A stretch of 64,000 bases of DNA, from IMG/VR virus record IMGVR_UViG_3300012663_001306, positions 1 through 64,000 of that record; one strand, written 5' to 3'. Position 1 is the first letter of the stretch, and the number at the start of each line of letters is the position of its first letter. The translations under genes and the position numbers were made by a program. The DNA comes from a virus. Shown piece after piece: positions 259-55,400 of this stretch. Below the pieces are notes generated by a model. It saw only the letters and a program-made list of their open reading frames with translations, was not told the DNA's origin and ran no database searches.

Positions 259-1656
259 TCAATTACGAGCGTTTTGGCGAACCTGATCAAAGGTAATTTC
301 TTTGACTAGTTTGCCATTGCGGAAGACTTCTTCAAGCATTTCTTCAAATGGGCCAAAACCACGGTCAAACCAACCTTTTGGTTGATCAACAGCACTTACC
401 CATTCCCCGCCGCCTTTCCAAAGTGTAACACGACCTGCTTTGGATTTCTTACCGCTATCAGTAATAGGATCCTTTTGCACGTCAACCCACTCACCGTTGA
501 TTTCGGCGCTAGAGCATTTCATTGCAAACTTTTGGGTATCGCGATCGACTTGTTGTAGCAGAGCGCCGCCCATCCCGAATGCAATATTATCTGCTGAGTA
601 TCCATATGCTTGGAATGACCCAAGAATACAGCGTACAGTGTGTTCGTTAATGCCGTCACCTTGGATCAGTCGAACATTGTTCAAAACTTTGAATCCTTTG
701 CTGTTTACAGTAGAGCCAAACTTAGTATCTAACTTCTGTACTAGGTTGCGACAAATGATCTCTGGATCACCGCTATCAGGACGGATAACAACTGTAGCGC
801 CACTATCGATTACCTGTTGACGGAGTTCTTCTCCCCACAGTTTGTCAACGGCGTTGTAGATGTCATAGCTGTCTGATACAATAGCAAGGACTGCTCCTGG
901 CTTGGCGTATTGGTTGAGCATGTTTCTATACGCATCAACTTCCCCGTCACGACCCCATGATGTAACGGTACTGTGTTCCATTGCTGGAATACTAAAGCCG
1001 GCAATCCCAGCATCATAATACTCGCGAGCAAAAAGAATACCGCTGATAGTGTCCGTTCCCATAAAGTTGATGAGGTGACTAGCACCCCCAATAGAGGCAG
1101 ACTCCATCGAGCTAACCCCACGAGCACCAAAGTCGTGCAACTTAAAATCAATAAGTGATGGATCACCTGTTTTCTCCAATGCGTCAAGAATGACTTGTTT
1201 AATAGTCCAGCTTTGAGTAGCTACAGTAGTTGGGTACCAAATGGCGCGAAGTAAGGTTGTTTCCAACCAAGTGGTTAACCAGAAACATTCTGGGTCAGTG
1301 TTTTCAACTGTGGCAAGTACGTTCTTAACAGGGACAACTGTTCCTTCGGGAACTGCTCGGATGACCACTGGAAGGTATCCAGCGTGTTTGTCAAGAATGT
1401 ATTGCCATCCTGCTCTGTTGAAAGGCTCACCGTGTGCGGTAAGGATCTCATCAGCAATGTCGATATCTGATTGTGTGATGGGTGCAAGCAGGTATTCCTT
1501 GATAAAGGCCTGTAGTCCGAAGAATACTGTTCTATTGTAACGGCCACCGCGGCTTTCAATATACGAATATACACCTGTAGTACCTGCTGGGTATTGTTTG
1601 AACATACTGACTTTGTAACTGTCGGTGTTCAGGATGATGTTTTTTGCGAGTTTCAT
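259..1656 (-). CDS. nadV: Nicotinamide phosphoribosyltransferase (NAMPT)
   Basis: Motifs TDSYK, LHDFGARG, SIPAMEHS, VSDSYD, IRPDSGDP, IQGDG, FGMGGALLQ, RDTQKFAMK. Confidence 0.95.
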   Translation of the reverse strand: MKLAKNIILNTDSYKVSMFKQYPAGTTGVYSYIESRGGRYNRTVFFGLQAFIKEYLLAPITQSDIDIADEILTAHGEPFNRAGWQYILDKHAGYLPVVIRAVPEGTVVPVKNVLATVENTDPECFWLTTWLETTLLRAIWYPTTVATQSWTIKQVILDALEKTGDPSLIDFKLHDFGARGVSSMESASIGGASHLINFMGTDTISGILFAREYYDAGIAGFSIPAMEHSTVTSWGRDGEVDAYRNMLNQYAKPGAVLAIVSDSYDIYNAVDKLWGEELRQQVIDSGATVVIRPDSGDPEIICRNLVQKLDTKFGSTVNSKGFKVLNNVRLIQGDGINEHTVRCILGSFQAYGYSADNIAFGMGGALLQQVDRDTQKFAMKCSSAEINGEWVDVQKDPITDSGKKSKAGRVTLWKGGGEWVSAVDQPKGWFDRGFGPFEEMLEEVFRNGKLVKEITFDQVRQNARN

Positions 1657-1700
1657 AATAAAGTTCCTTTATTAAAATTGCCCGGAGTCTATCTCTAGGA
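1656..1700 (-). promoter_or_regulatory. Two-hairpin 5' leader of nadV (GAG-AUAGA-CUC hairpin plus SD/AUG-sequestering hairpin)
   Basis: 13-mer at 1683-1695 is identical to 3243-3255; perfect inverted repeat AATAAAG-gaa-CTTTATT at 1657-1673 covers the SD. Confidence 0.7.
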
Positions 1701-1709
1701 CTTGTTTAT

Positions 1710-1739
1710 AGTATAACACCTAGCCCATCTAAGTGTCAA
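1710..1739 (-). promoter_or_regulatory. sigma70-type promoter for nadV (TTGACA-N18-TATACT with extended -10 TGn)
   Basis: Near-consensus hexamers just upstream of the leader. Confidence 0.7.
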
Positions 1740-2194
1740 CCAAATTCGACTAAAGTGACTGTGCCGCCTTCAGCCGAAATTCTATCAGCGAACCAATCAA
1801 TCATTGGAATGATTATGTCTTTGGATCCGCCTGCTAGCCCCATACCAATATAGGGCAAGCCAAATCTTTTACCTGGATATACAAAAGTTAACTTTTCTAA
1901 AATAAGTTGAAAGGCAGTGTATTCAAACACATCCGTGCCTTGACTCATGTTGTATTGTGTGTAAGCATTGACAATCAAGAACTTTCCAGTGAATGCTGTA
2001 GTCCAGTTACCCAACTTACGGTAGTCACCTTTTAGAGTTTCCATGTCAACATCTGCTGCCATCGGATAGCGTTCGCGAATCTCACGGGCAATGCCACCGC
2101 CCATGGTGTTGAAGCAATTGCAGCCTTGTACCACAATATCGAACAGGCCAGCTTCGGCCAGGTCCAGTAGATTACCTTTTGTATGTTTCAACAT
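1736..2194 (-). CDS. Macrodomain (ADP-ribose binding/processing) protein
   Basis: GNLL, QGCNCFNTMGGGIA, VNAYTQY and PYIGMGLAGG motifs typical of phage macrodomains. Confidence 0.85.
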   Translation of the reverse strand: MLKHTKGNLLDLAEAGLFDIVVQGCNCFNTMGGGIAREIRERYPMAADVDMETLKGDYRKLGNWTTAFTGKFLIVNAYTQYNMSQGTDVFEYTAFQLILEKLTFVYPGKRFGLPYIGMGLAGGSKDIIIPMIDWFADRISAEGGTVTLVEFG

Positions 2195-2195
2195 A

Positions 2196-3215
2196 TCATG
2201 CTCCTAAAAAGTGTTGAATGATTTCGTAGTGGTCTTCAAAGCATTCCTCACTGCGAACTTCGGCAATAGGAACCCAACGTGCTTTTTCAGCATCGTCATT
2301 GCCTTTTACTTTTGGCAACTCGCCGTCAGGTAGCTGGATGAAGAAGGCATGTGTAATTATACGCCCCCTGGGACTACGGCCGATCGCATCAAACACTTTA
2401 CTGCGAACAATACTGCCTTTTAACACAGGAGCAGGCACCTTAATCATTGTTTCTTCTCGCAACTCACGCAACATTGCCGCTTCAACACTCTTGTCAGTGT
2501 TGGCATTAACGTAACCGCCCGGCAATGCCCATAAGCCTTTACCTGGTTCAGCACGGCGTTTGATCATTAGGATGTGACCACTACAAATAACCACAGCATC
2601 AGCGGTACTGAAAATAGGAGGATATGGCAAGCTAGCATATTGCTTTTTGTAGTTGGCAACGAATTCACGTTCACGAATAATTTGCTCGTACTCTAAAGTA
2701 CTACGAAATGCGTCCAAGAATTCAAATGTGCTTGCAGGAACAACACCTTTGATAAAGCTCATATTAACATCACGTTTGAAGTACAGGTCGCGAATGTTAA
2801 CTGCACTCAAGAACTCGATTAGTTCTACGTTTTCAAATCCCCATTGTGGGAACATGTCTAAGTAGAATGAGCTGTCATCTTTCTTGTGTCCAATGATACC
2901 AACCTTGGCACCGGGCTTGGTGTGTTTGGCAACCAATGCCTGTATACGAACTGCCCATGCTTGGTCGTTGTAGATAGTGTCTGGGTTAGCTTCAATGTTG
3001 ATCAGCATTGAAAGTCCGCCTGCGGCATATTTGATCATGCGTTCGCGTTCAGCGGAGGTAAATGGGTTCTTGTAAGTACGGGGTTGTGCGGCACTGCCAG
3101 TGACAATAATAAGTTGTTCGCAGAGTGCTGTGGCTCGCTTGATAATCTCTAAGTGAGCATTGTGTATGGGTTGAAAGCGTCCAATAAGGACGAGGGTATC
3201 GTATTTTCTTGACAT
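2196..3215 (-). CDS. natV: Bifunctional NMN adenylyltransferase / ADP-ribose pyrophosphatase (NadM-Nudix)
   Basis: GRFQPIHNAH (HxxH), KNPFT, Nudix box GG..N..E....RELREET, DDAEKARW. Confidence 0.92.
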   Translation of the reverse strand: MSRKYDTLVLIGRFQPIHNAHLEIIKRATALCEQLIIVTGSAAQPRTYKNPFTSAERERMIKYAAGGLSMLINIEANPDTIYNDQAWAVRIQALVAKHTKPGAKVGIIGHKKDDSSFYLDMFPQWGFENVELIEFLSAVNIRDLYFKRDVNMSFIKGVVPASTFEFLDAFRSTLEYEQIIREREFVANYKKQYASLPYPPIFSTADAVVICSGHILMIKRRAEPGKGLWALPGGYVNANTDKSVEAAMLRELREETMIKVPAPVLKGSIVRSKVFDAIGRSPRGRIITHAFFIQLPDGELPKVKGNDDAEKARWVPIAEVRSEECFEDHYEIIQHFLGA

Positions 3216-3260
3216 TCAAAAATCCTTTGAATAATGTACGCTCGGAGTCTATCTCCTTGC
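3214..3260 (-). promoter_or_regulatory. Two-hairpin 5' leader of natV
   Basis: 13-mer at 3243-3255 shared with the nadV leader; ATTCAAAG-gat-TTTTGAAT hairpin covers the SD and the AU of AUG. Confidence 0.7.
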
Positions 3261-3266
3261 TGTATG

Positions 3267-3300
3267 TATTTATTATACAGTCAGATAATTTGGCTGTAAA
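3267..3300 (-). promoter_or_regulatory. sigma70-type promoter TTTACA-N17-TATAAT overlapping a TAAATA late-promoter motif
   Basis: -35 at 3300-3295, -10 at 3277-3272, TAAATA at 3272-3267. Confidence 0.7.
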
Positions 3301-3950
3301 GTGATTTTTTGTCCAATTAATTGATCAACAAATTGTAATAATAAAGTATGATGCTCTTCATGATGCCAATAGGGTTTTAAGTAGGGTTTGTTAAACCAGA
3401 ACTCTTGGCTTTCCGGATGGCACCCTATTATTCCAATACGGCCTTGTATTATGGCCATCGGGTCACCATTTGCGTATGTTGCTACTGTTTGGAATTTTGA
3501 TCGATTTCCTACAATAGCACACCCGTCATAAAAATACATATTATAGGGATTGTCCTGCCAGATTACAGGAGCATAGGTTCCGTAGCTTCTACGTATATCA
3601 GTCCTCGGGCGAGTGATGTATTGTACGGCATCACACTCTTCTAAGATATCAAAATAGTTTCGCCCTGCCCAATAAGCTCCCATACATATTCCTAGATAGT
3701 GTCCGCCACGGGCAATAAAGTCTGCAACTATATTACCACGGCGGCGATTAAAAAAATCATGAAATCTACTAGCATCACCTATTCCCCCCGGAAATGCTAT
3801 GATATCAATATCGGCTAGCATTTCAGCATTAAAGTTATTTTCCGAAAAGAACGTGAAGTCGTAATTTGGAGAAAGTGCTTTTACCATTCCTGCGGCACAT
3901 TGGCGCGAGCATTCCGGGTGGTGGACAAATAGGGCTATTTTGGGTCTCAC
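3273..3950 (-). CDS. BPL_N-like class I glutamine amidotransferase-fold protein
   Basis: FPGGIG, GGHYLGICMGAY nucleophile elbow, GCHPE. Confidence 0.75.
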   Translation of the reverse strand: MRPKIALFVHHPECSRQCAAGMVKALSPNYDFTFFSENNFNAEMLADIDIIAFPGGIGDASRFHDFFNRRRGNIVADFIARGGHYLGICMGAYWAGRNYFDILEECDAVQYITRPRTDIRRSYGTYAPVIWQDNPYNMYFYDGCAIVGNRSKFQTVATYANGDPMAIIQGRIGIIGCHPESQEFWFNKPYLKPYWHHEEHHTLLLQFVDQLIGQKITLQPNYLTV

Positions 3951-3997
3951 ATTGTATTTAACAGAAGTGCATACTGGTTACGGATTCCAGCGATACC

Positions 3998-5017
3998 TTA
4001 TTTTGTACCCGATTTTTCTACCAAATTATCTCTAAATATTTCCCAGGCGTTTTCCCAAGTCCACCGACCACTACCTTCCCAAACTTGAGTACGGTCTAAC
4101 ATCAATGCATCTTTAACTGCCTGCTTTAAGTCATCGTTCATACAACCAGTGATGCCTTCGTCTACAACATCTAGAGGACCCTGAACAGGATATGCCGCCA
4201 CCGGTGTACCGCAGGCCATTGCTTCTATCATAACAATACCAAATGTTTCCCAACGACTAGGAAACACAAATACATCTGCAATACGATAATAGTTGCCAAG
4301 TTCAACACCGCGCTTTGCACCCACGAACTCTACATTAGGATAGTTAGCTTTATATTCTTCTAGCATAGGGCCGTCGCCTACCATAATCTTACGAGCATTG
4401 GGGTAGTCTAACTTAAAGAAATCTTCTAGATTTTTTTCTTTACTAACACGGGCAACACAAACTAATATCGGATATTTGGCATCTGTACTGTATTTGCGTC
4501 TAGTACCTGGATAAAATATGTCACGATCAACTCCACGAGTCCACGGTATAATATCTCCATCGAATCCATGGGCTTGTAACTCGTTGACCATCGTTTCGGT
4601 AGTAGTCAGTACTTTGCCACTGTGCTTGTGGAACCAACGTACTAGAGGCCAAGTAAGGGCTTCAGGTATTCCAAATAAAGCACGGAGTCCTTCAGGGAAC
4701 TTAGTATGATAAGCAGTATTGTGCCTAATATTATGTTTTGAAAGATATTTTCTAGCAGACAAACCAACAGGACCTTCTGTGGCGATGTGGATATGATCTG
4801 CACCGACCTCCTCAATCTTCTTGCCGATCTGCCAGGGATAGGCAATCTTGACTTCGTTGTAGCCAGGACAATCAAAGTAGCGGAAGTCCCTGGGAGTAAT
4901 GTAAACAACGTGATAACCATCCAGAATCGCACACGCCTCAATATTTTTGTATGTTGTGACAACGCCATTGATTTGCTCCGGTAAATTGTCTGTTATGATT
5001 AAGATTGTTTTAGACAC
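3998..5017 (-). CDS. GT4 glycosyltransferase, Agt-like glycolipid (diacylglycerol) synthase
   Basis: TD..P.QINGVV, HIATEGPVG, YHTKFPE, RVSKEKN, FPSRWETFGIVMIEAMACGTPV; adjacent to a PlcP-like gene. Confidence 0.8.
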   Translation of the reverse strand: MSKTILIITDNLPEQINGVVTTYKNIEACAILDGYHVVYITPRDFRYFDCPGYNEVKIAYPWQIGKKIEEVGADHIHIATEGPVGLSARKYLSKHNIRHNTAYHTKFPEGLRALFGIPEALTWPLVRWFHKHSGKVLTTTETMVNELQAHGFDGDIIPWTRGVDRDIFYPGTRRKYSTDAKYPILVCVARVSKEKNLEDFFKLDYPNARKIMVGDGPMLEEYKANYPNVEFVGAKRGVELGNYYRIADVFVFPSRWETFGIVMIEAMACGTPVAAYPVQGPLDVVDEGITGCMNDDLKQAVKDALMLDRTQVWEGSGRWTWENAWEIFRDNLVEKSGTK

Positions 5018-5172
5018 TTTCCTTCTACCTTAAAACTCTTGAACTTTAGGTTCCACTTCAATGTGTTTAGGACTTGCTCGCAGGTTTTTTGATCCGCGAA
5101 CTGTAGTTCCACTCGGCCCGGTTGATCTGTTGGGTCGGTCACGTGGACCGCTATTAGAATCAGCAACCACAT
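4999..5172 (-). CDS. Unannotated 57-aa protein nested in the 3' end of the PlcP-like gene (MWLLILIAVHVTDPTDQPGRVELQF...CLKQS)
   Basis: Manually translated; AAGGAG SD 7 nt upstream of ATG; hydrophobic N-terminus, two Cys. Confidence 0.6.
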   Translation of the reverse strand: MWLLILIAVHVTDPTDQPGRVELQFADQKTCEQVLNTLKWNLKFKSFKVEGKCLKQS

Positions 5173-5926
5173 CATCTTTCTCCTTGGTCCATGTAATTAT
5201 CTCCCAACGGCCGTCATGGTGCTCTACTAGTGCGGTACACGATTCGACCCAGTCACCATCATTCATATACATAACACCATTGATCTCTTTGATCTCTGCA
5301 TGATGTATGTGTCCACATATAACCCCATCAAAGCCACGCTTCTTACAGTAGTTGGCTAAGTTTTCTTCAAACTTGAACATAAAGTCTACTGCTTTTTTAA
5401 CTCTGTGCTTAAGAAACTTGCTAATGCTAAAGTACCCAAAACCCATACGGCGACGAATCCAATTAAATTTATTATTGAGTGTAAGAACAAAGTCATATGC
5501 TTTATCTCCTAAAAATGCTATCCACGGTGCTAGGCGTGTGATACCATCAAACAAGTCACCATGTGTAACTAGGTAATGTTTACCATCGGTACCTATGTGT
5601 TCTATTTGATTGTGTATTTCCACTAGACCAAAACTGAACCCATATGGTATCATTGGTCTTAAAAACTCGTCGTGATTACCTGCTATGAATACCACACGAG
5701 TACCACGCTTGGCATGACCTAGTACACGGCGTACTACGTTGGTGTGACTTTGTTTCCAACGCCACTTGTTTTGTTGTATCTTCCACGCATCGATGATATC
5801 ACCAACTAGATAGAGAGTATCGCAGGAATTGTGTTTAAGAAAATTATTTAATTTGTCAGCTTGACAATCTTTAGTGCCTAAATGTACATCGGAAATAAAA
5901 ATAGAGCGATAAGTTTTGGCAGTCAT
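5030..5926 (-). CDS. Metallophosphoesterase of the PlcP/LpxH2 family (phospholipase C-like; usually annotated UDP-2,3-diacylglucosamine hydrolase)
   Basis: ISDVHLG, LVGDIID, GNHDE, HGDLFD, GHIH, NDGDWVES; start may be 5926 or 5932. Confidence 0.85.
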   Translation of the reverse strand: MTAKTYRSIFISDVHLGTKDCQADKLNNFLKHNSCDTLYLVGDIIDAWKIQQNKWRWKQSHTNVVRRVLGHAKRGTRVVFIAGNHDEFLRPMIPYGFSFGLVEIHNQIEHIGTDGKHYLVTHGDLFDGITRLAPWIAFLGDKAYDFVLTLNNKFNWIRRRMGFGYFSISKFLKHRVKKAVDFMFKFEENLANYCKKRGFDGVICGHIHHAEIKEINGVMYMNDGDWVESCTALVEHHDGRWEIITWTKEKDDVVADSNSGPRDRPNRSTGPSGTTVRGSKNLRASPKHIEVEPKVQEF

Positions 5927-5982
5927 ATCCATATTTATTGCCCAATTGATTGCAATATGATTACAAATTGATTAAATTTGTA

Positions 5983-44020: not shown

Positions 44021-47000
44021 TCAATTGGATAACTTAAACTGGGCAATTTTACTGTTATATCCATCTACAACATAAAAATCATTTCCGCCAGGTCTTAAAT
44101 ATCCGCTACTTACCATACTTGTTACATTATCTCCTAGTCTGCGTAAATCGTAGCTAACGCCGGTGTAGGCGGCAGATGTATGATCCCACGCTATACTCAA
44201 TAGATATACATAAATTCTATCAGTAGTTCCGTCTGTTATATACATGTATAACCCTTCGTTAGAGAAAGTAATGCCTGTAGGATTAGTTGCCTGCGGTAGA
44301 TTTATATACGGTGCCCATACATTAACGCCACTAATAGAACTAATAGAATACGGAGTAGGCATTGTTGCTCTGCCTAGATATCCTAGATTATTTGCGGTAG
44401 ATGTTACATATATGTAAGTTCCGTTATTTCCAAAACACATTCCATCTAGGCTAGCCGTATTAGGAACGTAATCGGCACTAACATTAACTCCTGTACCCAT
44501 TGACGAAATATTCCAGGCTGTGGTAAGAGGAAATTGTTGAACTGTTTTTGATGCACCCTGATTTCCTAGGAAATATACCGCAGTCCCAGTTGGATTGAAC
44601 ATTAACCCAGTGTGCAGTGAAGTTGTCCAATCTATTCTAGATCCTGTGGGCGCAATAGCTGTGGCTATATTCCAAGCGGTAGTTACAGGAAAGGAATATA
44701 CTGAACTGAATACTCGCTGGGTTATCATTGAAATATAAACAATGGTCCCGTCTGGTTTCCAGGCAACCCCTGTAATTCTAGGATTTGCGCTAGGATTTAA
44801 GTAATATGGAGAAAAATAAGTAAAACTAGTATTACTTTGATCAGTGGTTAATGTTGATGGAAATGCCCGGCCGGCTCCCCATATAATTCTAACTGCTCCT
44901 TGTGGCTTAATGGAGCTGGCTGTGACAGGAAATCCTGCACCATAAAGTACACCAGCTCCGCCCGACCCAGCACCTCCGGACGCACCCACTCCGGGGTTAC
45001 CATATACACCCGGCAGTCCATTTGCACCTTGGCCGAATATACCAACGCCACCTCCGTTCCAGCCGACGTAACCAACACCGCCAGCACCTCCGCCACCACC
45101 ACCACCGCCACTTCCTGTGCCCGGCGTGCCACGATCAGTACCACCTAAGCCACCATTGCCATTATAGCCTCCAGCACCTCCGTTTCCGCCACCGCCAGCT
45201 GAGGGGGCTCCAGAAGATATTCCACCGCGGCCGCCGTTGCCGCCACCGTCACCTGTATAACTTCCGCCATTTCCAATTGTACCGCTAAGGAATAACCCAG
45301 ACCCGCCGCCACCTTTAACTATATCACGACTAATAAAATAGCTATCACCATCGCCAATACCTACAAAACCAATACTTCCTCTACCAACAACTACTGTATA
45401 CGATTGTCCCGGAATTACAGGAATATTGTTTTTCCATCCTAATCCGCCGCCGCCGGCACCTGTAGGCGCTGATGGACTAGAATCTTGGATACCACCTGCA
45501 CCAACTGCTACCACATGCACATTGCCAACACCAGCTGGTGCTGTCCACAAATACGTACCAGTGGTAGTAAATGCTACCTGCCCTTGTATACCACCACCGG
45601 ATATAGGAGTCCAAGTAGTGTACAATGACATACTTGAAATATCTCTTTTGCCCAAACTAACACTAGTATCAACTAATGTCATTACGGGACTGGATGTAAC
45701 TGTTCTATCTGTGGATATGGAATAACTTAATGCAGAGAAAAATGGTTGATCAACAGTTAGTGTCGCAGGATATGCTCGTCCTGGACCCCACATAATACGC
45801 ACAGCTCCGCCAAAACCTACGTTATTAGCGTCACCTCGGGTATATCCTCCACTGTTCCCTGACCCGGTACTACCGCCTCCACCACCACCATATGAGCCAC
45901 CCATACCCCCTACGTTGCCTCCGGTAAGATTAGCTGTGCCATTGCCACCTGCATTTCCACCACTGCCACCACCACCACCGCCTCCTGCACTTGCGTATGA
46001 AGATACTCCAACTCCTCCGTTTCCATTTGCACCTTGGCCAAATATACCAACGCCGCCGCCGGCGCCCCCGGATGGTTGTCCATTTCCATTACCATATACC
46101 TGGTTAGTCGTACCTCCGCCACCTCCACCTCCTCCTGCGCCAAGGCCTCCAGGACCAAAATCGGCTGCACCACCATTCCCACCTGCGCCTGCATATCCAC
46201 CAGCGCCACCACCGCCACCACCTGCACCAGTTTGGCCAGCGCCCCCCAAAAATGTAGTAGCTGATACATTAAAGGCACCACCTGCACCACCATAACCGCC
46301 ACCTTGGCTAACAAATACACCACTAATAAAATAACCACCGCCAGCACCTCCGAGGACGCCGCTAGTATTCACTCCTGCGCTACCACCGTTTGCTCTAATA
46401 ACATTAGTTTCCATAAAATAACTGTTGCCGCCAGCGGTTGCAGTGGGGCCAGCTGTGCCGCCCGCGCCCACTACAACTGTATATGACTGGCCGGGCACAA
46501 CAGCGATGTTGTTTGCCCAAGCTAATGCTCCACCACCACCGCCTCCACCGTCTCGAAATCCACCACCACCTGCGCCAACACATACTGCACTTACAGAGGT
46601 AACTCCAGCTGGGGCAACCCAAATATACGTACCGGGTGTGGTGTATGCTTGTTGACCAGTAACAGTGGTAGGAAGAGAAAACGATGTCCCTGTGTACATT
46701 GCTTTTCCGTTGACAATACGTAACTGAGTTATAACTCCAGTAAAATACCCAACAAAATCTGCGCCTATTCCTATTATTAAATTTTTTGTAGCTCCGTTGT
46801 AGTAATAAAGAATATCATTACCTATATTATATACAGAATTTCTTGTGCCCGAAATAATATCAGCGACACCATTAACATACAGTCGCAAATCTCCGCCATT
46901 TCTTACTACAGCAACATGAGTATATACGTTAAGTGAAATAGGAGTTGTGCCAATTACACTTATAGTAGATATACCACTCGCCGCGTTCGTGTAAAAGAAC

Positions 47001-49498
47001 CTTAATACATTGGCAGTTGTAATTTCAAGTCCGAACTCGCCGCCGGCGTTCCAATTTTGTACAATTCCCCTAAGTGTGCCACTAGTGCTGGGATTAATCC
47101 ATGCCTCGATGGTAAAATCTTGATCAGTAAATGGAATTTGAACTGTACTAGACAGGTACCCAGCACCGCCAAATTGTACAGCAAATAAAGAGCCTAAACT
47201 AAACGCAGTCACTCCTGATCCAGCAATCGTTAACGTTTGTCCACTGCTTTCTGAGGTTGCTGATGCAGAACTACATGCTAAAAATACATATGCTGGAGAA
47301 TATGCTGAAATTCCCGTTGCTACGTTAACTATAAAATTTTCAGGACCCTCAGTTAGTAAATCCTCGGCGCTAGTTATTGAAAAACTACCTACACCACTAA
47401 CCATGGTAAAACTTCCAACCATTTGAGTAAAATCAGTTGAAGTAACTGGACTAACTCCCACTGTAGTATCGATAGCCCAGTACAATTTTTTTCCAGTTGG
47501 AAAATTCTCTGTGTTTACAGTGAATGTTACACTGTCGGCTTCGTTCATAACCGTTTTACTGGCAATCAACGGATATACAATTGGAGTCCTACTAGAATCA
47601 AAAACAGTAATCGACGGGGAGGCTGCTACTGGATTTAATCTCGTTATATCGGTATATAGTATTACTGTAAATATTACATTGCCCTGTGTAAAACTGTCTA
47701 ATCCAAATACATTAAGTGTTGCGGTATTAAATGATGCAGTATTAGAGTTAATTGTTATACTACCTGTAGTTGTTCCAGTTATTGGGCCAACTTGAGGGAT
47801 CAATGCATAATACAAAACAGTACCATCTGCAACGTTAGTAGTGGTCACAGTAACATCCACGGTAGAACCTTCAGGAATTGCAGTAGAAGCGGGCGATATT
47901 GAATAAGTAGGATTAGTATCTGAACCTACATCATAGTCTGAAAACAATCGAGTATCTCCGGGCCACACTATTCTTACGGCTCCTGGCCCGCCAATAGCAC
48001 CGAAATAACTGCTACCACCCCCGCCTCCACCAAATTTTATATCCGATGAGGCTAAGACTGCACCAACCGCGGAACCTGCGGGCAATAATTGATATGCACG
48101 GTTTGGTGCAACTGACGGGAACGCTTCTACAAGGGCACTTGCAGTACAAATGCCTGAAAATCCAGCGCCGTTCCTAGCATTCACACCAATTTGTATGTCT
48201 ATTCTAGATGGCTGGTTTTCATAAAACCACGCTTCCCAAACCATGTTGGGAGATCCCAGCGTACCCGAAGTCCCTGCCGTACCTTCATAACGTACTCTAT
48301 ACACTCTATTAGGTGTGGTCCCACTCTGAACTCCAGCATACACTCGTTGATAAGAATTGTCAGCGGAGTCAATCATTATTTTAGGAATACCGGGAGCCGC
48401 TGCGTTCAGTGGTTGAAATTGTCCAGATCCCGAGCCAAAGGTTAGATAACTATTTGATCCTACAAATACAGAGGTATATGACAAACCAGCATAAAGTACA
48501 CTCCACGGTAAATTAATTTGGACAAAAGTATCATCAGCTGACGCATTTACAACCAGCGTTAAACTAGTAACAGCAGGAAGATTAAGAGCTATGCTAGTTA
48601 TCTGAGTGGTGGCAACAAACTCGGCAAACGGAATACTTCCAGAATAGCCATCGAATGTTGCGGCAAGGGCGGTGCTGGCGGCACCATCGACACCTCGTCC
48701 GAAAAGGCCTACCCCACCACCTTTAGAGGCGCTTTGATTTATTAACACAACTGTAGGATAGTTTGGGCCGCCCCCTCCACCACCGGAGGCAACTCCAGCG
48801 GCTGAACCAGCGCCACCTGAAGGATTTGATGCAGTCCCAATCGCACTTGCATTAATAGATCCATTACCACCAGGACCATTATATCCACCAGCACCACCTC
48901 CTCCTGCGCCAGACATTATGTAATTAGTTGTCCCAGGATGTATGGCATTTGCGCCACCGGCACCACCGGCACCACCGCCAATTCCTACAATTATTTGTCC
49001 ACCACTTCCTGTAGAAACTGAGCTTGGCGGGCCAGGAGTATATCCTGTAATACTATTGGCTAATCCACCTTTTCCGCCTCGGCCTCCACCGGCACTAACA
49101 ATAACCTCAGTTGAAGTAGTTCGATATATATACGAATCTCCTCCGTTGCCGCCATTATTGGGATTATTAACGGGCCATGTTGAAGAATTACTTATAGCAC
49201 CGCTTGTTCCGCCGGCGCCGACTACCACTGTAAGTGATTCTCCTGGATATACAGGAATATTATTGTTATAGGCAAGGGCGCCACCCCCACCTCCACCTCC
49301 ACCGATCACCCCAGTCGAAACATTGATGTATACGGCGGCGCTGCCGCCACCGCCACCACCGCCAACGGCAACTACAGAAATAGAATTCACTCCAGCAGGC
49401 ACCGTAAAAGTGGTAGTAAATGGTGTACTAAAACTTGTGGTGTATTGAACACTACCCCTTGCTTTTTTATTATATCTTGGTATTAAAAACCCGCTCAT
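44021..49498 (-). CDS. Large adhesin-like virion protein: three glycine-rich domains, LamG/ConA-like domain, C-terminal beta-propeller-like domain
   Basis: Three P.GV..V..V.VG.GG domains; FTIEAWI...HVAVVR..LYVNG; WKPDGT/FNPTGT/FSNEG blades. Confidence 0.75.
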   Translation of the reverse strand: MSGFLIPRYNKKARGSVQYTTSFSTPFTTTFTVPAGVNSISVVAVGGGGGGGSAAVYINVSTGVIGGGGGGGGALAYNNNIPVYPGESLTVVVGAGGTSGAISNSSTWPVNNPNNGGNGGDSYIYRTTSTEVIVSAGGGRGGKGGLANSITGYTPGPPSSVSTGSGGQIIVGIGGGAGGAGGANAIHPGTTNYIMSGAGGGGAGGYNGPGGNGSINASAIGTASNPSGGAGSAAGVASGGGGGGPNYPTVVLINQSASKGGGVGLFGRGVDGAASTALAATFDGYSGSIPFAEFVATTQITSIALNLPAVTSLTLVVNASADDTFVQINLPWSVLYAGLSYTSVFVGSNSYLTFGSGSGQFQPLNAAAPGIPKIMIDSADNSYQRVYAGVQSGTTPNRVYRVRYEGTAGTSGTLGSPNMVWEAWFYENQPSRIDIQIGVNARNGAGFSGICTASALVEAFPSVAPNRAYQLLPAGSAVGAVLASSDIKFGGGGGGSSYFGAIGGPGAVRIVWPGDTRLFSDYDVGSDTNPTYSISPASTAIPEGSTVDVTVTTTNVADGTVLYYALIPQVGPITGTTTGSITINSNTASFNTATLNVFGLDSFTQGNVIFTVILYTDITRLNPVAASPSITVFDSSRTPIVYPLIASKTVMNEADSVTFTVNTENFPTGKKLYWAIDTTVGVSPVTSTDFTQMVGSFTMVSGVGSFSITSAEDLLTEGPENFIVNVATGISAYSPAYVFLACSSASATSESSGQTLTIAGSGVTAFSLGSLFAVQFGGAGYLSSTVQIPFTDQDFTIEAWINPSTSGTLRGIVQNWNAGGEFGLEITTANVLRFFYTNAASGISTISVIGTTPISLNVYTHVAVVRNGGDLRLYVNGVADIISGTRNSVYNIGNDILYYYNGATKNLIIGIGADFVGYFTGVITQLRIVNGKAMYTGTSFSLPTTVTGQQAYTTPGTYIWVAPAGVTSVSAVCVGAGGGGFRDGGGGGGGALAWANNIAVVPGQSYTVVVGAGGTAGPTATAGGNSYFMETNVIRANGGSAGVNTSGVLGGAGGGYFISGVFVSQGGGYGGAGGAFNVSATTFLGGAGQTGAGGGGGGAGGYAGAGGNGGAADFGPGGLGAGGGGGGGGTTNQVYGNGNGQPSGGAGGGVGIFGQGANGNGGVGVSSYASAGGGGGGGSGGNAGGNGTANLTGGNVGGMGGSYGGGGGGSTGSGNSGGYTRGDANNVGFGGAVRIMWGPGRAYPATLTVDQPFFSALSYSISTDRTVTSSPVMTLVDTSVSLGKRDISSMSLYTTWTPISGGGIQGQVAFTTTGTYLWTAPAGVGNVHVVAVGAGGIQDSSPSAPTGAGGGGLGWKNNIPVIPGQSYTVVVGRGSIGFVGIGDGDSYFISRDIVKGGGGSGLFLSGTIGNGGSYTGDGGGNGGRGGISSGAPSAGGGGNGGAGGYNGNGGLGGTDRGTPGTGSGGGGGGGGAGGVGYVGWNGGGVGIFGQGANGLPGVYGNPGVGASGGAGSGGAGVLYGAGFPVTASSIKPQGAVRIIWGAGRAFPSTLTTDQSNTSFTYFSPYYLNPSANPRITGVAWKPDGTIVYISMITQRVFSSVYSFPVTTAWNIATAIAPTGSRIDWTTSLHTGLMFNPTGTAVYFLGNQGASKTVQQFPLTTAWNISSMGTGVNVSADYVPNTASLDGMCFGNNGTYIYVTSTANNLGYLGRATMPTPYSISSISGVNVWAPYINLPQATNPTGITFSNEGLYMYITDGTTDRIYVYLLSIAWDHTSAAYTGVSYDLRRLGDNVTSMVSSGYLRPGGNDFYVVDGYNSKIAQFKLSN

Positions 49499-52400
49499 AT
49501 TCTTTGATAGTATATAGTAACTTTTAGACCTTTGGCTATTGTACCGCCTGCGGTAATATCTAAAGTTATTTCGTCGTCATCGTTTAATACAGTAGTTATC
49601 AAGGAAGTTGGGACTGCAGAAGTTCTAGAAGTTCTAGAACCGGTATCAACTTGTAATTTATTACCACCCAATATACTGGCGCCATTTGATTTAACATCAA
49701 CTATTGTCGGACTACTTCCTTGAACACTTAAAGATGCCCTCGGAATTTGATATAAATTCATTTGGAACGGTACTCTAAATGTAACTATTGCGGCACCAGT
49801 AGCTATAAATGATACTTCATCAGTTAACGCTATCGACATAAAATCAGTTGAGTTTCTGCCTATGCTACCTGTAAAACCTACTGCAACTGCGGCACCCGAA
49901 CTACCTGTAAAGCCCAATGAAACTGCGGCGCTTGCACTACCTGTATAACCTATAGCACCAATATAGCCGCCGCCGGCTGCTACTTCAACCCACTGGAATG
50001 TATCACCGTCATATGTGTAAATGAATTCTAATCCAACTGTAGTATCAAACCAACGATCGCCAATTCTAGTTGTAACGCTACCTGCACTACCAACGAATGA
50101 TGTAGGAGGATTGTCATCGTATACAAAACTACTCTCACCCCTTGATCCAGCGTATCCAAACGATCCAGTAAATCCAAAACTACCAGAATATCCAAAACTA
50201 CCTACAAATCCTCTATCACCAGTTCTTATAAAGGTGATTGCCAACATATCGTTGTTGGTAAACATTGCACCAGATAGATATGTAACTGTAAATTGGTAGT
50301 TATTTGAACCAATAGTAAGAGCGGTAACATTGAATATTGTAACGTTGGCTACATTATTCAAATTATTCCTAATAATTAATTGGCCTTTTATAGGTGTTGT
50401 ACTATCGGCCCAGGTTGATATGTAACCTCCTAAATTAACACTGTTAATATCTAAGATGTTGAAATAAACTCCAGTAACAGATGCTATTGTAGTAACATTA
50501 TTAAATCTTACATTACCGTTACCAGTTGTTTGAGGAGTTGTTGCGGTATTATCAAAGTAATATTTAATACCGCCCTTGTCTCCTTGACTACCGTTGTAGC
50601 CAAAGCTACCAGTGAATCCAAAGCTACCAGTGAATCCTGAACTTCCTGTATATCCTCTTTCGCCGGATCTGACTAAGAACACTCCTAATAATTCAGTATT
50701 AGCAATACCAAAATAGAACTGAGGAGTAATTGTTAATGCAAAGGAGTTTGTACCCGATGCCGCAACCGCTGTAACATCAGCTAGATACAAATTAGGTGAA
50801 TTTGTAGCAACATTAGACCTAACGACCAACTGTGCCTTAATAGGATTAACAATTGTAGTAAACGAATTAAACCATGCTTGTAAATCTGCACCATTGGTAT
50901 CATATCTATTGATAAACACAGTGGTAGCACTCATAGGAGTGGCATTGTTTAATCTTAAAGTTCCGTTAGGGTTACCGCTGACCTGTGCAATTAATGCACT
51001 AGTATCCCATGTGTATATTAATCCACTTTGTGAGTTACTACCAGTATAACCAAAGCTACCAGTATAACCAAACGATCCAACAAAACCTCTACTGCCGCCG
51101 TAACCTAAGTCACCTGCTCTAACATAATTTAATGCTAGCTGGTCATTGTTTCCCGGAATTGTGCCACTACCATTGGCAATATTAATTGTGTAATAAGATG
51201 TGTTATTAACAACACTAGATACGTTGTAGATTAAGAACGGACTGGATCCTGCTAGATTCTGGTTGAATATTAACTGTCCCTTAACAGTAGGATTACTACT
51301 ATCTGCCCATTGGCTAATATATGTTGCTAGGTTAACTGAATTTACATCAGTGACATTAATAAAAGCCTGCGTAGCAGAAGCGGCAACTGCATTGTTTAAT
51401 CGAATACTACCGGCATTGCCCACACCCGCTGTTAACGTATTATCAAAATAGTATCGTAATCCTGCAGATTCTCCCTGACTACCAGTAAAACTCTGAGAGC
51501 CTGTAAAACCAAATGATCCAACAAATCCTCTACTGCCCACATATCCAAAGTCACCAACTGGTACATACTCTAGTGCAAATACATCTCCGCCAAGTACACC
51601 CGCAAGTGTTCCAGAGAAACTGCTTACATTTAATGTATAGTAAGTGCCGTTGTTTACAATGGTGCTAATACCCCAAATACTAAGATAAGTTATAGTTGGA
51701 ATAATATTTTTAATGTACAGCTGGCCTTTGGTACCTGGGTTTTTACTATCAGCCCAACGTGCTATATAACCAGATAGATCGTTTCCGCCTATGTCTTTAA
51801 CATTAATATATATCTGTGTAAATGCAGGATTAAATCTTAAACTACCGTCAGTAGTTACGCCCGGAGACTGAGAACTATCATCGTAGTAGAATGCAAGGCC
51901 AAGTCTCTCACCCTGACTGCCGGTGTAACCAAATGATCCTGCATATCCCTCGCTACCAATATATCCGCGGCTACCGTTGTAACCGAATGACCCAGTGTAA
52001 CCAAAACTACCTGTGTAACCAAATGATCCTGCATATCCTTCACTACCAGTAAACCCTCGACTACCAGTGTACCCAAATGATCCAGTGTAACCAAAACTAC
52101 CAGTGTAACCAAATGATCCAGTATAACCAAATGAGCCACTATAACCAAAGCTACCAGTGTAACCAAAGCTACCAGTGTAACCAAATGATCCTGCATATCC
52201 TTCACTACCAGTAAATCCTCGACTACCAGTGTACCCAAATGAGCCAGTGTAACCAAATGAGCCAGTGTAACCAAATGATCCTACAAATCCTTTTTCACCA
52301 GTGTAGACAAATTCTACAGCCAACGGTTCATTGGCTGTTGAGAATGATCCGCTTACATATGTTGCCGACAAGGTATAATATGTAGAATTATTTGTAACTC

Positions 52401-55400
52401 CAGTAATGTTCCATAAAGAAGAAGCAGATACTGAAGGCGATGTTGCTTTAACGATCAACTGTCCTTTTATAGTAGCAGTAGGATTATTAGTTCCCCATTG
52501 TCCTATGTATGTACTAAATGAAACACCGTTAGTATCGTTTATATTAATGAATACTTGGGTAACAGATCCAATAACAACATTATTAAATCTTAAGCTACCG
52601 TTTGTTCCTACGCCGGCAACTTGAGAACTTAGATCGTTATAATAACGTAGGCCGCCACGATCACCTATACTACCAGTGTAGCCAAATGATCCGCTGTAAC
52701 CAAATGATCCAGTGTAGCCAAATGATCCGCTGTAACCAAATGATCCGCTGTAGCCAGCACTACCAGCATATCCCTGGTCTCCAGTTCTAACAAATTCTAC
52801 AGCAAGTTTATCATCTGCAAGGGGAATATATCCAGATACAAAAGATACAGAAATTTGTGTATAACCTGATGCAACTACCACGCCGGTAACATTAAAAATT
52901 GTCATCACAGGTTGAGCCATTAAATAATGTTTAATAATTACTTGACCCTTAGTGCCCGGGGATGTGCTTGCGGCCCACTGTGCTAGATAGGACCCAACAT
53001 CCACTCCATTTATATCAAAGTTAGAAAAATACAATGCTCCTACTGATACAACATCAGTATCACTGTATCTTAGGCCACCATTTGCAGTAACTCCTGGAGT
53101 TGTAGTAGCATCCAGGTAGTAACGAAGACCACTAGGATAACCATGACTACCGGTGTAACCAAAGCTACCGGCGTAACCAAAGCTACCGTTAAATCCAGCA
53201 CCTCTACTTCCTACAAAACCAAGTCCGCCTAGATCTCCAGTTCGTTTAGCTTCGATAACTAATTGTGCATTATTAGCTGGCGCGGCACCGGATAGATATG
53301 TTACGGTTAGAGTATAATATGTACCTAAGTTGGCTGCGCCAACAATTGTAAATGCCGATGTTGCGCTAACGTTATTAACGTTTGATTTTATTAATAACGT
53401 ACCTTTATTTGGACTGTTACTTCCGCTCCAGGTTGCAATATAATTTGAGAAATTAATTGAATTCGTATCAACAACGTTAACATAAATTTGTGTTACACTA
53501 CTAGTAACAGCGTTATTGAATCTAATACTTCCTGGACTGCCGACTCCAGCTGTAAGTGTGTTATCAAAGTAGTAGCGTAACCCGCCACGATCACCTTGAC
53601 TACCCACAAAGCTCGTACTACCAGTAAATCCTGCCCCGCGGCTACCAGTGTACGCTTGACTACCTGTAAATCCTAAAGCGCCTCTACTACCGGTATAACT
53701 TTGAGATCCAGTAAATCCTGAGCCCTGGCTACCGGTGTACGCTTGACTACCAGTATAACCTTCTGATCCTGTATAACTTTGAGATCCAGTGTAACCAACG
53801 CCCTGGCTTCCTGTGTAACCTTCACTACCAACGTAACCTTCACTACCAACGTAACCTTCACTGCCACTATAACCTAAATCGCCTGGCGGGCCTTGCGGTC
53901 CAAGTTCTCCAGCATCGCCCTGGGGTCCTTGAAGTCCTTCTGGCCCTATTTCACCTTGACTACCAGTGTAACCAAATGATCCGGCATAGCCTTCACTACC
54001 AGCATATCCTCTACTACCGGTCCACCCTGTGATACCGCGTGGACCTTGTCCACCTTTTATAGAATCAACAATAGCAATATAATCTATGTTTGTTTGATAC
54101 CCTGCAAAACCGACATTTTCATGATACAATCTTAATTGTACAGTTCCTGCATCAATATAAGGAGTTGACGAAATAACTGATAATTGAAATTGATAGTATC
54201 CTGTAAGACCGTTATAAGATCCAATTGAATCCCACGAAGATGTTGTGTAGTTGTATAGTTGCACATAAATTACATGACCCGATGCCGTTGTGTATTGTAC
54301 ATTCAAATCTACTAGATTAAATCTAATTACGCCTGTGTAAGTTACATTGAATATCCACGCTGGCCCAGACGGGGCAGTACCAGGATTAATAGTGGTATTA
54401 CCGTCTGTAAATACAAACTGGTTACCGTCATTAAATCCTTGAATATCTTCTACGGATCCAGATACAAAAACTCCGTCAACTAAGTTTGCAGTTGCGGCAT
54501 TATAGATAACTGCTTGCGGTGTTTCACCTTTACTACCAGTGTAACCAAAGCTGCCTGTGTAACTTTGTGATCCAGTGTAACCAAAGCTGCCAGTGTACCC
54601 AACGCTACCAGCATAACTTTGTGATCCAGTGTAACCAATGCTACCAGTGTACCCTTCACTACCTACAAATCCTTCACTACCGACATATCCTTCACTACCC
54701 GAATATCCCTGACTACCTGTATATCCAAGAGATCCAACATAGCCTTCACTGCCGGTATAACTTTGTGATCCGGTAAAGCCTCGACTACCTGCATAACCTT
54801 GACTACCGGTAAAGCCTCGACTACCTGCATAACCTTGACTACCTATAAAGCCGTCGCTACCTGAATATCCTTGACTACCTGTATAACCAAATGATCCTGT
54901 ATAACCATCGCTACCAGTAAATCCAATCGAGCCGGTGTAGCCTTCACTACCTGTATAACTTTGCGATCCTGTGTAGCCAAAGCTACCAAAATATCCTATA
55001 TTTCCTTGCGGGCCTTGAATGTTACCTGCATCAACCCATAGACTTCCGGTCCATACCCATAGACGTCCATCGTCTGTTATGTAACTATCCCCTCTGGCTC
55101 CTGTGTAAGTGTCAGGGTACCCTGGCAATAGCAAGTAAGTAGCAACGTTGCCTAAAATAGTAACAGATGTTCCGTCTGCACCCCTTGGGCCTTGACTACC
55201 TGCAAATCCATGAGATCCCGTGTAGCCTTCTGATCCAGTGTAACTTTGTGAGCCAGTGTAACCAAATGAACCAGTATAACCAAAGCTACCGGCATAACCA
55301 AATGAACCTGTGTATCCAGAGCTACCGGCATAACCAAATGAACCTGTATAGCCTTCGCTACCACTATAGCCTTCGCTACCACTATAGCCAAATGATCCAG

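Follow-up and report, generated by a model that had tools for sequence, protein, structure and literature searches.

The two nicotinamide adenine dinucleotide (NAD) salvage genes nadV and natV of a 64,000-nt stretch of viral DNA (positions 1-64,000 of the 114-kb IMG/VR record IMGVR_UViG_3300012663_001306, hereafter the window) are each preceded by a copy of a conserved cis-acting mRNA element, which is strand-specific, shows covarying base pairs and occurs in phages as well as on bacterial chromosomes. NadV is a nicotinamide phosphoribosyltransferase and NatV, also termed NadM, a bifunctional nicotinamide mononucleotide (NMN) adenylyltransferase-Nudix protein; according to bioRxiv 10.1101/2024.02.11.579819, the two make up the NARP2 pathway, by which phages rebuild NAD+ after its depletion by bacterial immunity. 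The element, here named the nadM/nadV two-hairpin leader, is an uncatalogued, widespread RNA of the nadM-nadV salvage pathway, and the window copies are ordinary members of its type A. A preliminary description, which was made from the window sequence alone, had proposed a structured 5' leader shared by and specific to both genes, acting as a phage riboswitch or translational operator. The comparative data agree with the shared leader and its gene specificity, but not with its being a phage feature, since the same leader precedes chromosomal bacterial nadM and nadV genes. As judged from its predicted fold, the leader probably limits translation of both enzymes.

In the window, the two leaders share the 13-mer GAGATAGACTCCG, which occurs exactly twice both here and in the full 114-kb record, each time on the - strand. 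It lies 27 nt before the nadV ATG (position 1656) and 28 nt before the natV ATG (position 3215), whereby the placement given in the preliminary description was verified, and RNAfold reproduced the two hairpins that had been proposed for each leader (Table 1). Hairpin 1 carries the loop G-AUAGA-C in both copies, with the loop-closing G about 37-38 nt from the AUG; in the natV leader it is interrupted by a 2x2 purine internal loop (AA/GA), which recurs in most phage natV leaders. Hairpin 2 consists of 8 bp and encloses the Shine-Dalgarno (SD) sequence AAGGA, together with the A of the AUG in the nadV leader (-3.4 kcal/mol) and with the entire AUG (3213-3215) in the natV leader. A comparable SD hairpin was found at none of the other genes of the window, and the 152-aa gene that lies between natV and nadV has no leader copy, as had been noted before. 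The sigma70-like promoters that had been suggested ahead of each leader were found as near-consensus sites (11/12), which are among the best of the first 5.2 kb and each stop about 7 nt ahead of their leader. A scan of the 114-kb record with the full-leader model R3 (described below) yielded the natV and nadV leaders as the sole two matches. The window alone is weak evidence for the leader; some 13-mer repeat with up to two mismatches arose in 7 of 100 shuffles, and the fold z-scores of the two leaders are only -1.1 to -2.8. The significance of the leader comes from the comparison with other genomes and not from window-internal statistics.

For this comparison, 80 IMG/VR loci with relatives of NadV (76-86% identity) and 80 bacterial nadV loci were used, and the family was defined by R3, a covariance model of the full leader from 139 phage and bacterial leaders. 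Hairpin 1 of the family is a covarying stem of 7-8 bp that is closed by a G-C pair and carries an A-N-A-G-A loop, to which both window copies conform. Among 75 distinct phage hairpin-1 sequences, 75.8% of the alignment cells are paired, compared to 53% in shuffled sequences and 21-39% when the partner was slid, and changes on both sides were seen in 7 of the 8 pairs, with the G-C closing pair and the loop being invariant. In the alignment of 139 leaders all 13 pairs covary, whereby 85.6% of the cells are paired (56% in shuffles), the covariation score is 0.68 (versus 0.19), and G-U pairs are numerous. Loop positions A14, A16, G17, and A18 are identical in 139/139 leaders, and outside the SD sequence the pentaloop and its closing pair are the only invariant bases. 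For the phage natV-type leaders, RNAalifold recovered both hairpins with compensatory changes in hairpin 2; the homologous hairpin-2 pairs covary across the family, and the hairpin encloses the SD sequence and the AUG partly or wholly. The hairpins are joined by a linker of 7-15 nt that contains 8% G, and 10% G even in GC-rich bacteria. Throughout the family, the loop-closing G and the AUG are separated by 36-44 nt. All R3 matches are located on the gene strand (110/110 in the window and the phage loci, 93/93 in the bacterial loci).

Two other models were abandoned. A model of phage natV leaders only (R2) was dropped as too narrow, and a model of hairpin 1 alone (R1) was insufficiently specific, as its whole-genome matches in GC-rich genomes are CGATAGACG strings in coding DNA without hairpin 2; hairpin 2 is likewise missing from the weak R1 matches in phage coding regions (L092, L093, L095). 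Inspection of the aligned leaders by eye revealed no pseudoknot or kissing interaction of the AUAGA loop with the linker YUAU, the 3' arm of hairpin 2 or the early codons that would be consistent across lineages, and the UAU ahead of the natV hairpin 2 is accounted for by its pairing with the AUG. An anti-sequestor pairing of the linker with the SD sequence occurs in some Xanthomonads only.

The absence of the motif upstream of homologous genes would have spoken against the element; the motif was found in many phages and bacteria. Most of the 80 phage loci have the hairpin upstream of nadV, with a stem that varies in sequence but keeps its pairing and a constant loop G-ATAGA-C. Some of these leaders are preceded by a TTGACA-N17/18-TATACT promoter; in other loci the leader is an intercistronic copy right behind the natV stop, where there is no promoter. 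The second copy precedes either natV or a small uncharacterised open reading frame (ORF) that heads the operon. It is such an ORF, of 67-155 aa, and not natV that follows the operon's first leader in several relatives, whereby the start AUGUCA is kept with the leader; these ORFs belong to PHROGs 12218, 37251, and 33851, which are of unknown function. In five jumbo-phage genomes, one of them complete (354 kb), R3 found exactly two matches each (43-52 bits), with the next best at 20.5 bits or less. As to cultured phages, none has a NadV that is more than 60% identical to that of the window. The Synechococcus phage B23 carries the leader before both natV and nadV (model R1), and in phage RTH11 a variant leader precedes nadV, and an AUAGA hairpin was found by reading the sequence before the gene upstream of it. 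Phages RsoM2USA and ACP17 lack an ANAGA hairpin before nadV and have the SD hairpin alone.

In bacteria, matches occur on the same strand at two sites, before the nadM gene of about 350 aa and before nadV. Leader-bearing bacteria include Lysobacter, Stenotrophomonas, Xanthomonas and other Xanthomonadales, Burkholderia, Paraburkholderia and Ralstonia, as well as Caulobacter, Thiothrix relatives, Hahella and a Methylococcaceae metagenome-assembled genome (MAG). Their loop is G-A-N-A-G-A-C, with N being U or C and rarely A or G, and their hairpin 2 is GC-rich and holds the SD sequence, in the nadM type also the entire AUG (CGUGAGGGAUUCUCAUG). In Xanthomonad nadM leaders, a -10-like TAGCAT precedes hairpin 1 at a distance of about 8 nt, so that the entire 5' untranslated region (UTR) seems to consist of the motif. 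In five bacterial genomes of 2.6-8.8 Mb, R3 found two matches each (31-49 bits; next best 21 bits or less), and one or two matches in each of five further genomes. Of 41 genomes sampled from the taxonomic family, 7 contain the leader, in most cases as two copies separated by about 1.1 kb, whereas none of the 150 other genomes sampled from the same class does. In one genome in which nadM and nadV lie on separate contigs, each gene keeps its own copy. The leader is thus specific to nadM/natV and nadV, or to the small first ORF of their operon. Apart from the leader itself, several Xanthomonad loci (L143:2915-2948; L106, L112, L169, L176) have the final nadM codons and the stop inside a GC-rich hairpin GGCCGCGG-UUGA-(U)CGCGGC, which adjoins hairpin 1 of the nadV leader and may be an intercistronic processing or stability element.

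Neither Rfam 15 nor the literature searched accounts for the element. No Rfam 15 family reached its gathering score in the window or in ten related phage and bacterial loci, and NAD+-I (nadA motif) and NAD+-II (pnuC motif) gave no match at E values up to 10 in window positions 1500-3500, in line with the earlier remark that the leader is not recognisable as a described NAD+-I or NAD+-II riboswitch. The PyrR binding site (RF00515) was likewise without match in the window and the ten loci, and the genes are nadM and nadV, not pyr genes. Guanidine-II (mini-ykkC) is characterised by two ACGR tetraloops, whereas the loops here are AUAGA and an SD-containing GAA or GGAUU, and there was no Rfam match to it. 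A match to the DUF2815 RNA over the nadV leader was discarded as being at chance level (16.9 bits compared to a gathering score of 41.2; E 8.6). In the literature, we found no description of an RNA motif of nadV or nadM or of a third class of NAD+ riboswitches, and no account of how the nadM-nadV pathway is controlled in phages or in bacteria without NrtR sites; the NrtR study (PMC2330246) does not cover the Xanthomonas and Burkholderia operons.

Because the hairpin sequesters the SD sequence and the AUG, and because the element is present in one copy per cistron, is strand-specific and covaries, control is suggested to act at the level of translation. Hairpin 2 would lock the SD sequence and part or all of the AUG and so throttle initiation, and hairpin 1 would present its G-ANAGA-C loop across the G-poor linker as an operator for a trans-acting reader. 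In translational operators, a distance of 36-44 nt before the AUG corresponds to the upstream edge of the 30S binding region. The likeliest reader is NadM/NatV, which would bind the leaders of natV/nadM and nadV and couple the synthesis of both enzymes, possibly in dependence on an NAD-related ligand that is held by the enzyme. From the sequence comparison, we consider the chances even that NadM/NatV reads the leaders on its own gene and on nadV.

Several observations connect the motif with NadM. A nadM gene is located nearby in 49 of the 50 motif-bearing bacterial loci versus 5 of the 30 motif-less ones, and five genomes with a motif-less nadV contain no full-length NadM and no motif anywhere, whereas close relatives with NadM have both. 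The motif state changes 2 times on the NadM tree (about 20 times with shuffled labels) and 20 times on the NadV tree (about 41 with shuffled labels), and independent contrasts on the NadV tree gave about 10 in the same direction and 0 in the opposite one (p ~0.002). Furthermore, 25 phage loci that were missed by R3 carry a divergent NatV of 324 aa with the N-terminus MKxGIFIGRFQP, here named type B, which is about 33% identical to the window NatV, whereas NadV of these loci is 76-82% identical. Type-B natV has a two-hairpin leader of its own with the loop G-G(U/C)AGU-C (GNAGU), in which 99% of the cells are paired and 11 of 14 pairs covary; nadV of the same phages lacks hairpin 1 and has the SD hairpin only. 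The loop is ANAGA before all type-A nadM genes (50/50) and GNAGU before all type-B ones (17/17); before nadV it is ANAGA in 91 cases and GUAGA in one, phage RTH11. A distant type-A NatV (L253) has again the loop AUAGA. Three sampled cyanobacterial nadV loci have no leader, while cyanophage B23 has one, which makes a host-specific regulator unlikely; the reader should therefore be a metabolite, the universal machinery or a protein of the cassette.

Other observations weigh against NadM as the reader. One leader is physically joined to nadM and that of nadV follows closely behind the nadM gene; inheritance as a single block therefore accounts for much of the association. The loop difference between types A and B represents one evolutionary event, and loop positions 1 and 5 change jointly (A..A, G..U, and G..A in phage RTH11), which may mean no more than that the two form a non-canonical pair below a common N-A-G triloop, the specificity being unaltered. 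Among 15 columns that discriminate the two NadM types there is no basic cluster, and a type-A-specific basic patch was not found. Cyanobacterial NadM is 45-49% identical to type A and yet has no leader. In Hahella (L151; locus positions 1793-1848 and 2950-3003), nadM alone scores with R3 and the adjacent nadV does not. Finally, in two MAGs with a motif-bearing nadV, both on short contigs, no NadM was found by query. These two contigs (L163, from a Campylobacterales MAG, and L158, binned as Heimdallarchaeota) are very short and AT-rich and may be phage-derived and binned with cellular genomes. As to Hahella, a hairpin-like string GGATAGACC and an SD hairpin are present between nadM and nadV, but stay below the threshold. 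An NrtR site has been described before Hahella nadM (PMC2330246), and control at the DNA level and at the RNA level may coexist there.

Instead of a protein, the leader itself could sense the metabolic state. It would then be a new small riboswitch with an NAD-related metabolite as its ligand (NAD+, NMN, ADP-ribose, nicotinamide or phosphoribosyl pyrophosphate), the binding of which alters the hiding of the SD sequence and the AUG by hairpin 2, for instance because the ANAGA loop docks onto the linker or hairpin 2. We regard this as a tentative alternative that is rather unlikely to be correct. A covarying structure, a strict link to one pathway and an SD-sequestering expression platform are the usual marks of riboswitch candidates, but many of the stems are perfect helices without a pocket, the internal loops are unconserved, and invariance outside the SD sequence is confined to the pentaloop and its closing pair. 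Riboswitches that consist of no more than two tiny hairpins are known, such as guanidine-II, and the known NAD+ riboswitches are narrowly distributed. Here, the element ranges over Alpha-, Beta-, and Gammaproteobacteria as well as several phage groups that are unrelated to one another, a cyanophage among them, and the reader has to be universal or move with the cassette; however, no copy was found ahead of nadV genes that stand alone, and genome-wide matches occur at nadM and nadV only, although a metabolite sensor would be expected to turn up now and then at further genes. Neither the folds nor the aligned leaders, when read by eye, contain a conserved alternative pairing or pseudoknot between the two modules, and the lineage whose NadM is different deviates at two loop bases that are invariant elsewhere. 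Of the two options offered by the preliminary description, the comparative evidence thus favours the protein-bound operator, with NatV at the AUAGA loop, over the riboswitch. That there is a widespread riboswitch class shared by Proteobacteria and phages, with which phages would sense NAD+ depletion, or the ADP-ribose or nicotinamide set free by NAD-degrading defence systems, and switch the enzymes on only under attack, is doubtful. The earlier idea that NAD rebuilding is raised when defences deplete NAD+ is compatible with NadM as the reader as well as with a riboswitch.

It is improbable that the leader is a passive structure without a specific ligand, in which hairpin 1 shields the 5' end or serves as a processing site, thereby stabilising the cistron behind it, and hairpin 2 acts as a fixed throttle that sets low, balanced enzyme levels. 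A stabiliser needs no invariant loop, and the loop is invariant at four positions in 139/139 leaders; neither a fixed distance to the AUG nor the restriction to two genes per genome would be expected from it. It would fit that in promoter-proximal copies only a few nt lie between hairpin 1 and the transcription start that is predicted, as also seen with the Xanthomonad TAGCAT, and that hairpin 2 is retained on type-B phage nadV without hairpin 1, which indicates that hairpin 2 is an autonomous module. Still less probable is an operator that is read by another universal factor, be it NadV, a ribosomal component or a global RNA-binding protein. NadV is likewise always present in the cassette, but the motif follows the NadV tree poorly, with its 20 changes, and nadV genes without nadM have no motif. 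PyrR, a phosphoribosyltransferase-like protein, is a known RNA-binding regulator. The G-poor, C/A-rich linker resembles binding or standby sequences, although two sites per genome are unexpected for a global factor. A DNA-level operator (e.g., of an NrtR-like repressor, as NAD salvage operons are often under the DNA-binding repressor NrtR; PMC2330246) or a chance repeat (the repetition of the 13-mer within the window alone being not beyond chance) is very improbable and already contradicted by the covariation and strand data, since the arms vary freely with pairing kept, many G-U pairs would be A-C on the opposite strand, the conserved core is asymmetric, copies occur between cistrons, and all 203 matches are on the gene strand, which also agrees with the earlier remark that the element is not recognisable as an NrtR box.

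Among known systems, the PyrR loop of the pyr leaders (RF00515) is a short hairpin with a conserved loop that stands on several cistrons and is read by an operon-encoded, enzyme-like protein in a metabolite-dependent manner. It resembles the nadM/nadV leader in its conserved loop and purine-rich bases, in its presence on several cistrons of one nucleotide-metabolism operon, and in its wide distribution with the operon with which it travels; however, PyrR acts mostly by transcription attenuation via an anti-antiterminator, whereas the nadM/nadV leader has no terminator, its hairpin 2 hides the SD sequence and the AUG, and its reader is a candidate only. The operators of Escherichia coli thrS (bound by ThrRS) and of T4/RB69 gene 43 (bound by the DNA polymerase) are also hairpins with a specific loop just upstream of the SD sequence at the edge of the 30S site, where the bound protein competes with the ribosome. 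In contrast to the nadM/nadV leader, which stands on the genes of two enzymes in phages and several bacterial classes and adds a separate hairpin that sequesters the SD sequence and the AUG, each of them is confined to the gene of its reader and to a restricted lineage. The iron-responsive element shares a covarying stem, an invariant small loop, often a mid-stem irregularity and the location in the 5' UTR, and its reader IRP1, the cytosolic aconitase, is a metabolic enzyme that binds RNA according to the state of its cofactor; the element differs in being eukaryotic, in its unrelated CAGUGN loop and in its cap-dependent mechanism. Guanidine-II, which was long considered too simple for a riboswitch, likewise consists of two small hairpins with a short variable linker, of which the second overlaps the SD sequence, and has very few conserved bases, but its two ACGR loops kiss, whereas the two loops of the nadM/nadV leader (ANAGA and SD) differ and are not complementary. 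NAD+-I and NAD+-II are also cis-regulatory RNAs before genes of NAD biosynthesis or salvage, and NAD+-II also controls access to the SD sequence; they are associated with nadA and pnuC, not with nadM/nadV, and the nadM/nadV leader lacks a conserved internal-loop core.

With regard to the surrounding genes, the NAD-salvage genes of the window are all located on the - strand. The natV product matches NCBIfam NF003788 with 360.5 bits (cut-off 354). No Pfam or NCBIfam family matched the product of the 152-aa gene, which gave a match to PHROG 335 "phosphatase" (E 4e-38) and a weak match in PDB to an ADP-ribose 1''-phosphate phosphatase (E 1e-3). The start codon of the gene overlaps with the natV stop, which points to coupled translation of the two; at this position, related loci carry different small genes or no gene. 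Directly upstream of the NAD cassette (3273-5932, - strand) are located a BPL_N-like gene (225 aa), a GT4 glycosyltransferase gene (339 aa) and a gene for a calcineurin-like metallophosphoesterase (300 aa), all three without leader. A perfect TTGACA-17-TATAAT promoter (191-219, - strand) lies just 3' of nadV and is followed by about 190 nt (1-190) free of ORFs up to the window end. The - strand also carries two giant ORFs, of which the first (49495-63999) encodes at least 4,834 aa and continues past the end of the window and the second (44021-49498) encodes 1,825 aa, both compatible with a jumbo phage that has very large virion or fibre proteins. The completeness of the 114-kb record is estimated at 32%, by which the record originates from a jumbo phage.

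Table 1. Features of the NAD-salvage region (window positions) and leader-associated features of related phage loci (locus positions)
Feature	Position	Strand	Details
nadV, nicotinamide phosphoribosyltransferase, 465 aa	259..1656	-	Pfam NAPRTase + NAMPT_N; NCBIfam NF006629, 650 bits
152-aa gene between natV and nadV, without leader	1736..2194	-	macrodomain-like or phosphatase-like
natV/nadM, bifunctional NMN adenylyltransferase-Nudix, 339 aa, type A	2196..3215	-	Pfam CTP_transf_like + NUDIX
13-mer GAGATAGACTCCG, two copies	1683-1695 and 3243-3255	-	sequence search
nadV leader, full model match, ends at ATG	1654..1703	-	R3 43.0 bits, E 1.4e-7; R1 33.2 bits
nadV hairpin 1	1680..1701	-	GUCC..GAG / AUAGA loop (1688-1692) / CUC.GGGC; RNAfold; homologous pairs covary
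nadV hairpin 2	1656..1674	-	UAAUAAAG-GAA-CUUUAUUA, 8 bp; RNAfold
natV leader, full model match	3213..3263	-	R3 52.1 bits, E 8.6e-10
natV hairpin 1	3240..3260	-	GC-AA-GGAG / AUAGA loop (3248-3252) / CUCC-GA-GC; RNAfold
natV hairpin 2	3213..3233	-	AUUCAAAG-GAUUU-UUUGAAUG region, 8 bp; RNAfold; RNAalifold with compensatory changes
sigma70-like promoter of nadV leader	1710..1739	-	TTGACA-18-TATACT, upstream TG, 11/12 match; overlaps stop of 152-aa gene
sigma70-like promoter of natV leader	3272..3300	-	TTTACA-17-TATAAT, 11/12 match; promoter-like site scan
Small first ORFs after leader	L005:2613-2939, L031:1587-1943, L013:1269-1643, L041:1584-2051, L075 (ORF after 2611)		related phage loci
Type-B loci	L024, L049, L052, L053, L056, L059, L063, L073-L075, L077, L081		e.g. 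L063:1378-1430
Further type-B loci	L236, L238, L239, L241, L243, L247, L249		

New in this analysis are the parallel type-B leader with its GNAGU loop and the finding that nadV genes without nadM in bacteria are without the element. As the RNA element is present on both genes in the chromosomes of Xanthomonas and Burkholderia as well as in cyanophages and jumbo phages, control of the pathway becomes directly testable, whereby the leaders with ANAGA (type A) and GNAGU (type B) loops offer an experimental handle. If it is true that NadM reads the leader, this would be a new case of a metabolic enzyme that acts as an RNA-binding regulator, and the two loop types would form a natural matched pair for specificity-swap experiments; if the RNA binds a metabolite, it would constitute a new NAD-related riboswitch class with a range far beyond that of NAD+-I or NAD+-II. 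Either way, the family merits an Rfam entry, which would improve the annotation of NAD salvage loci.

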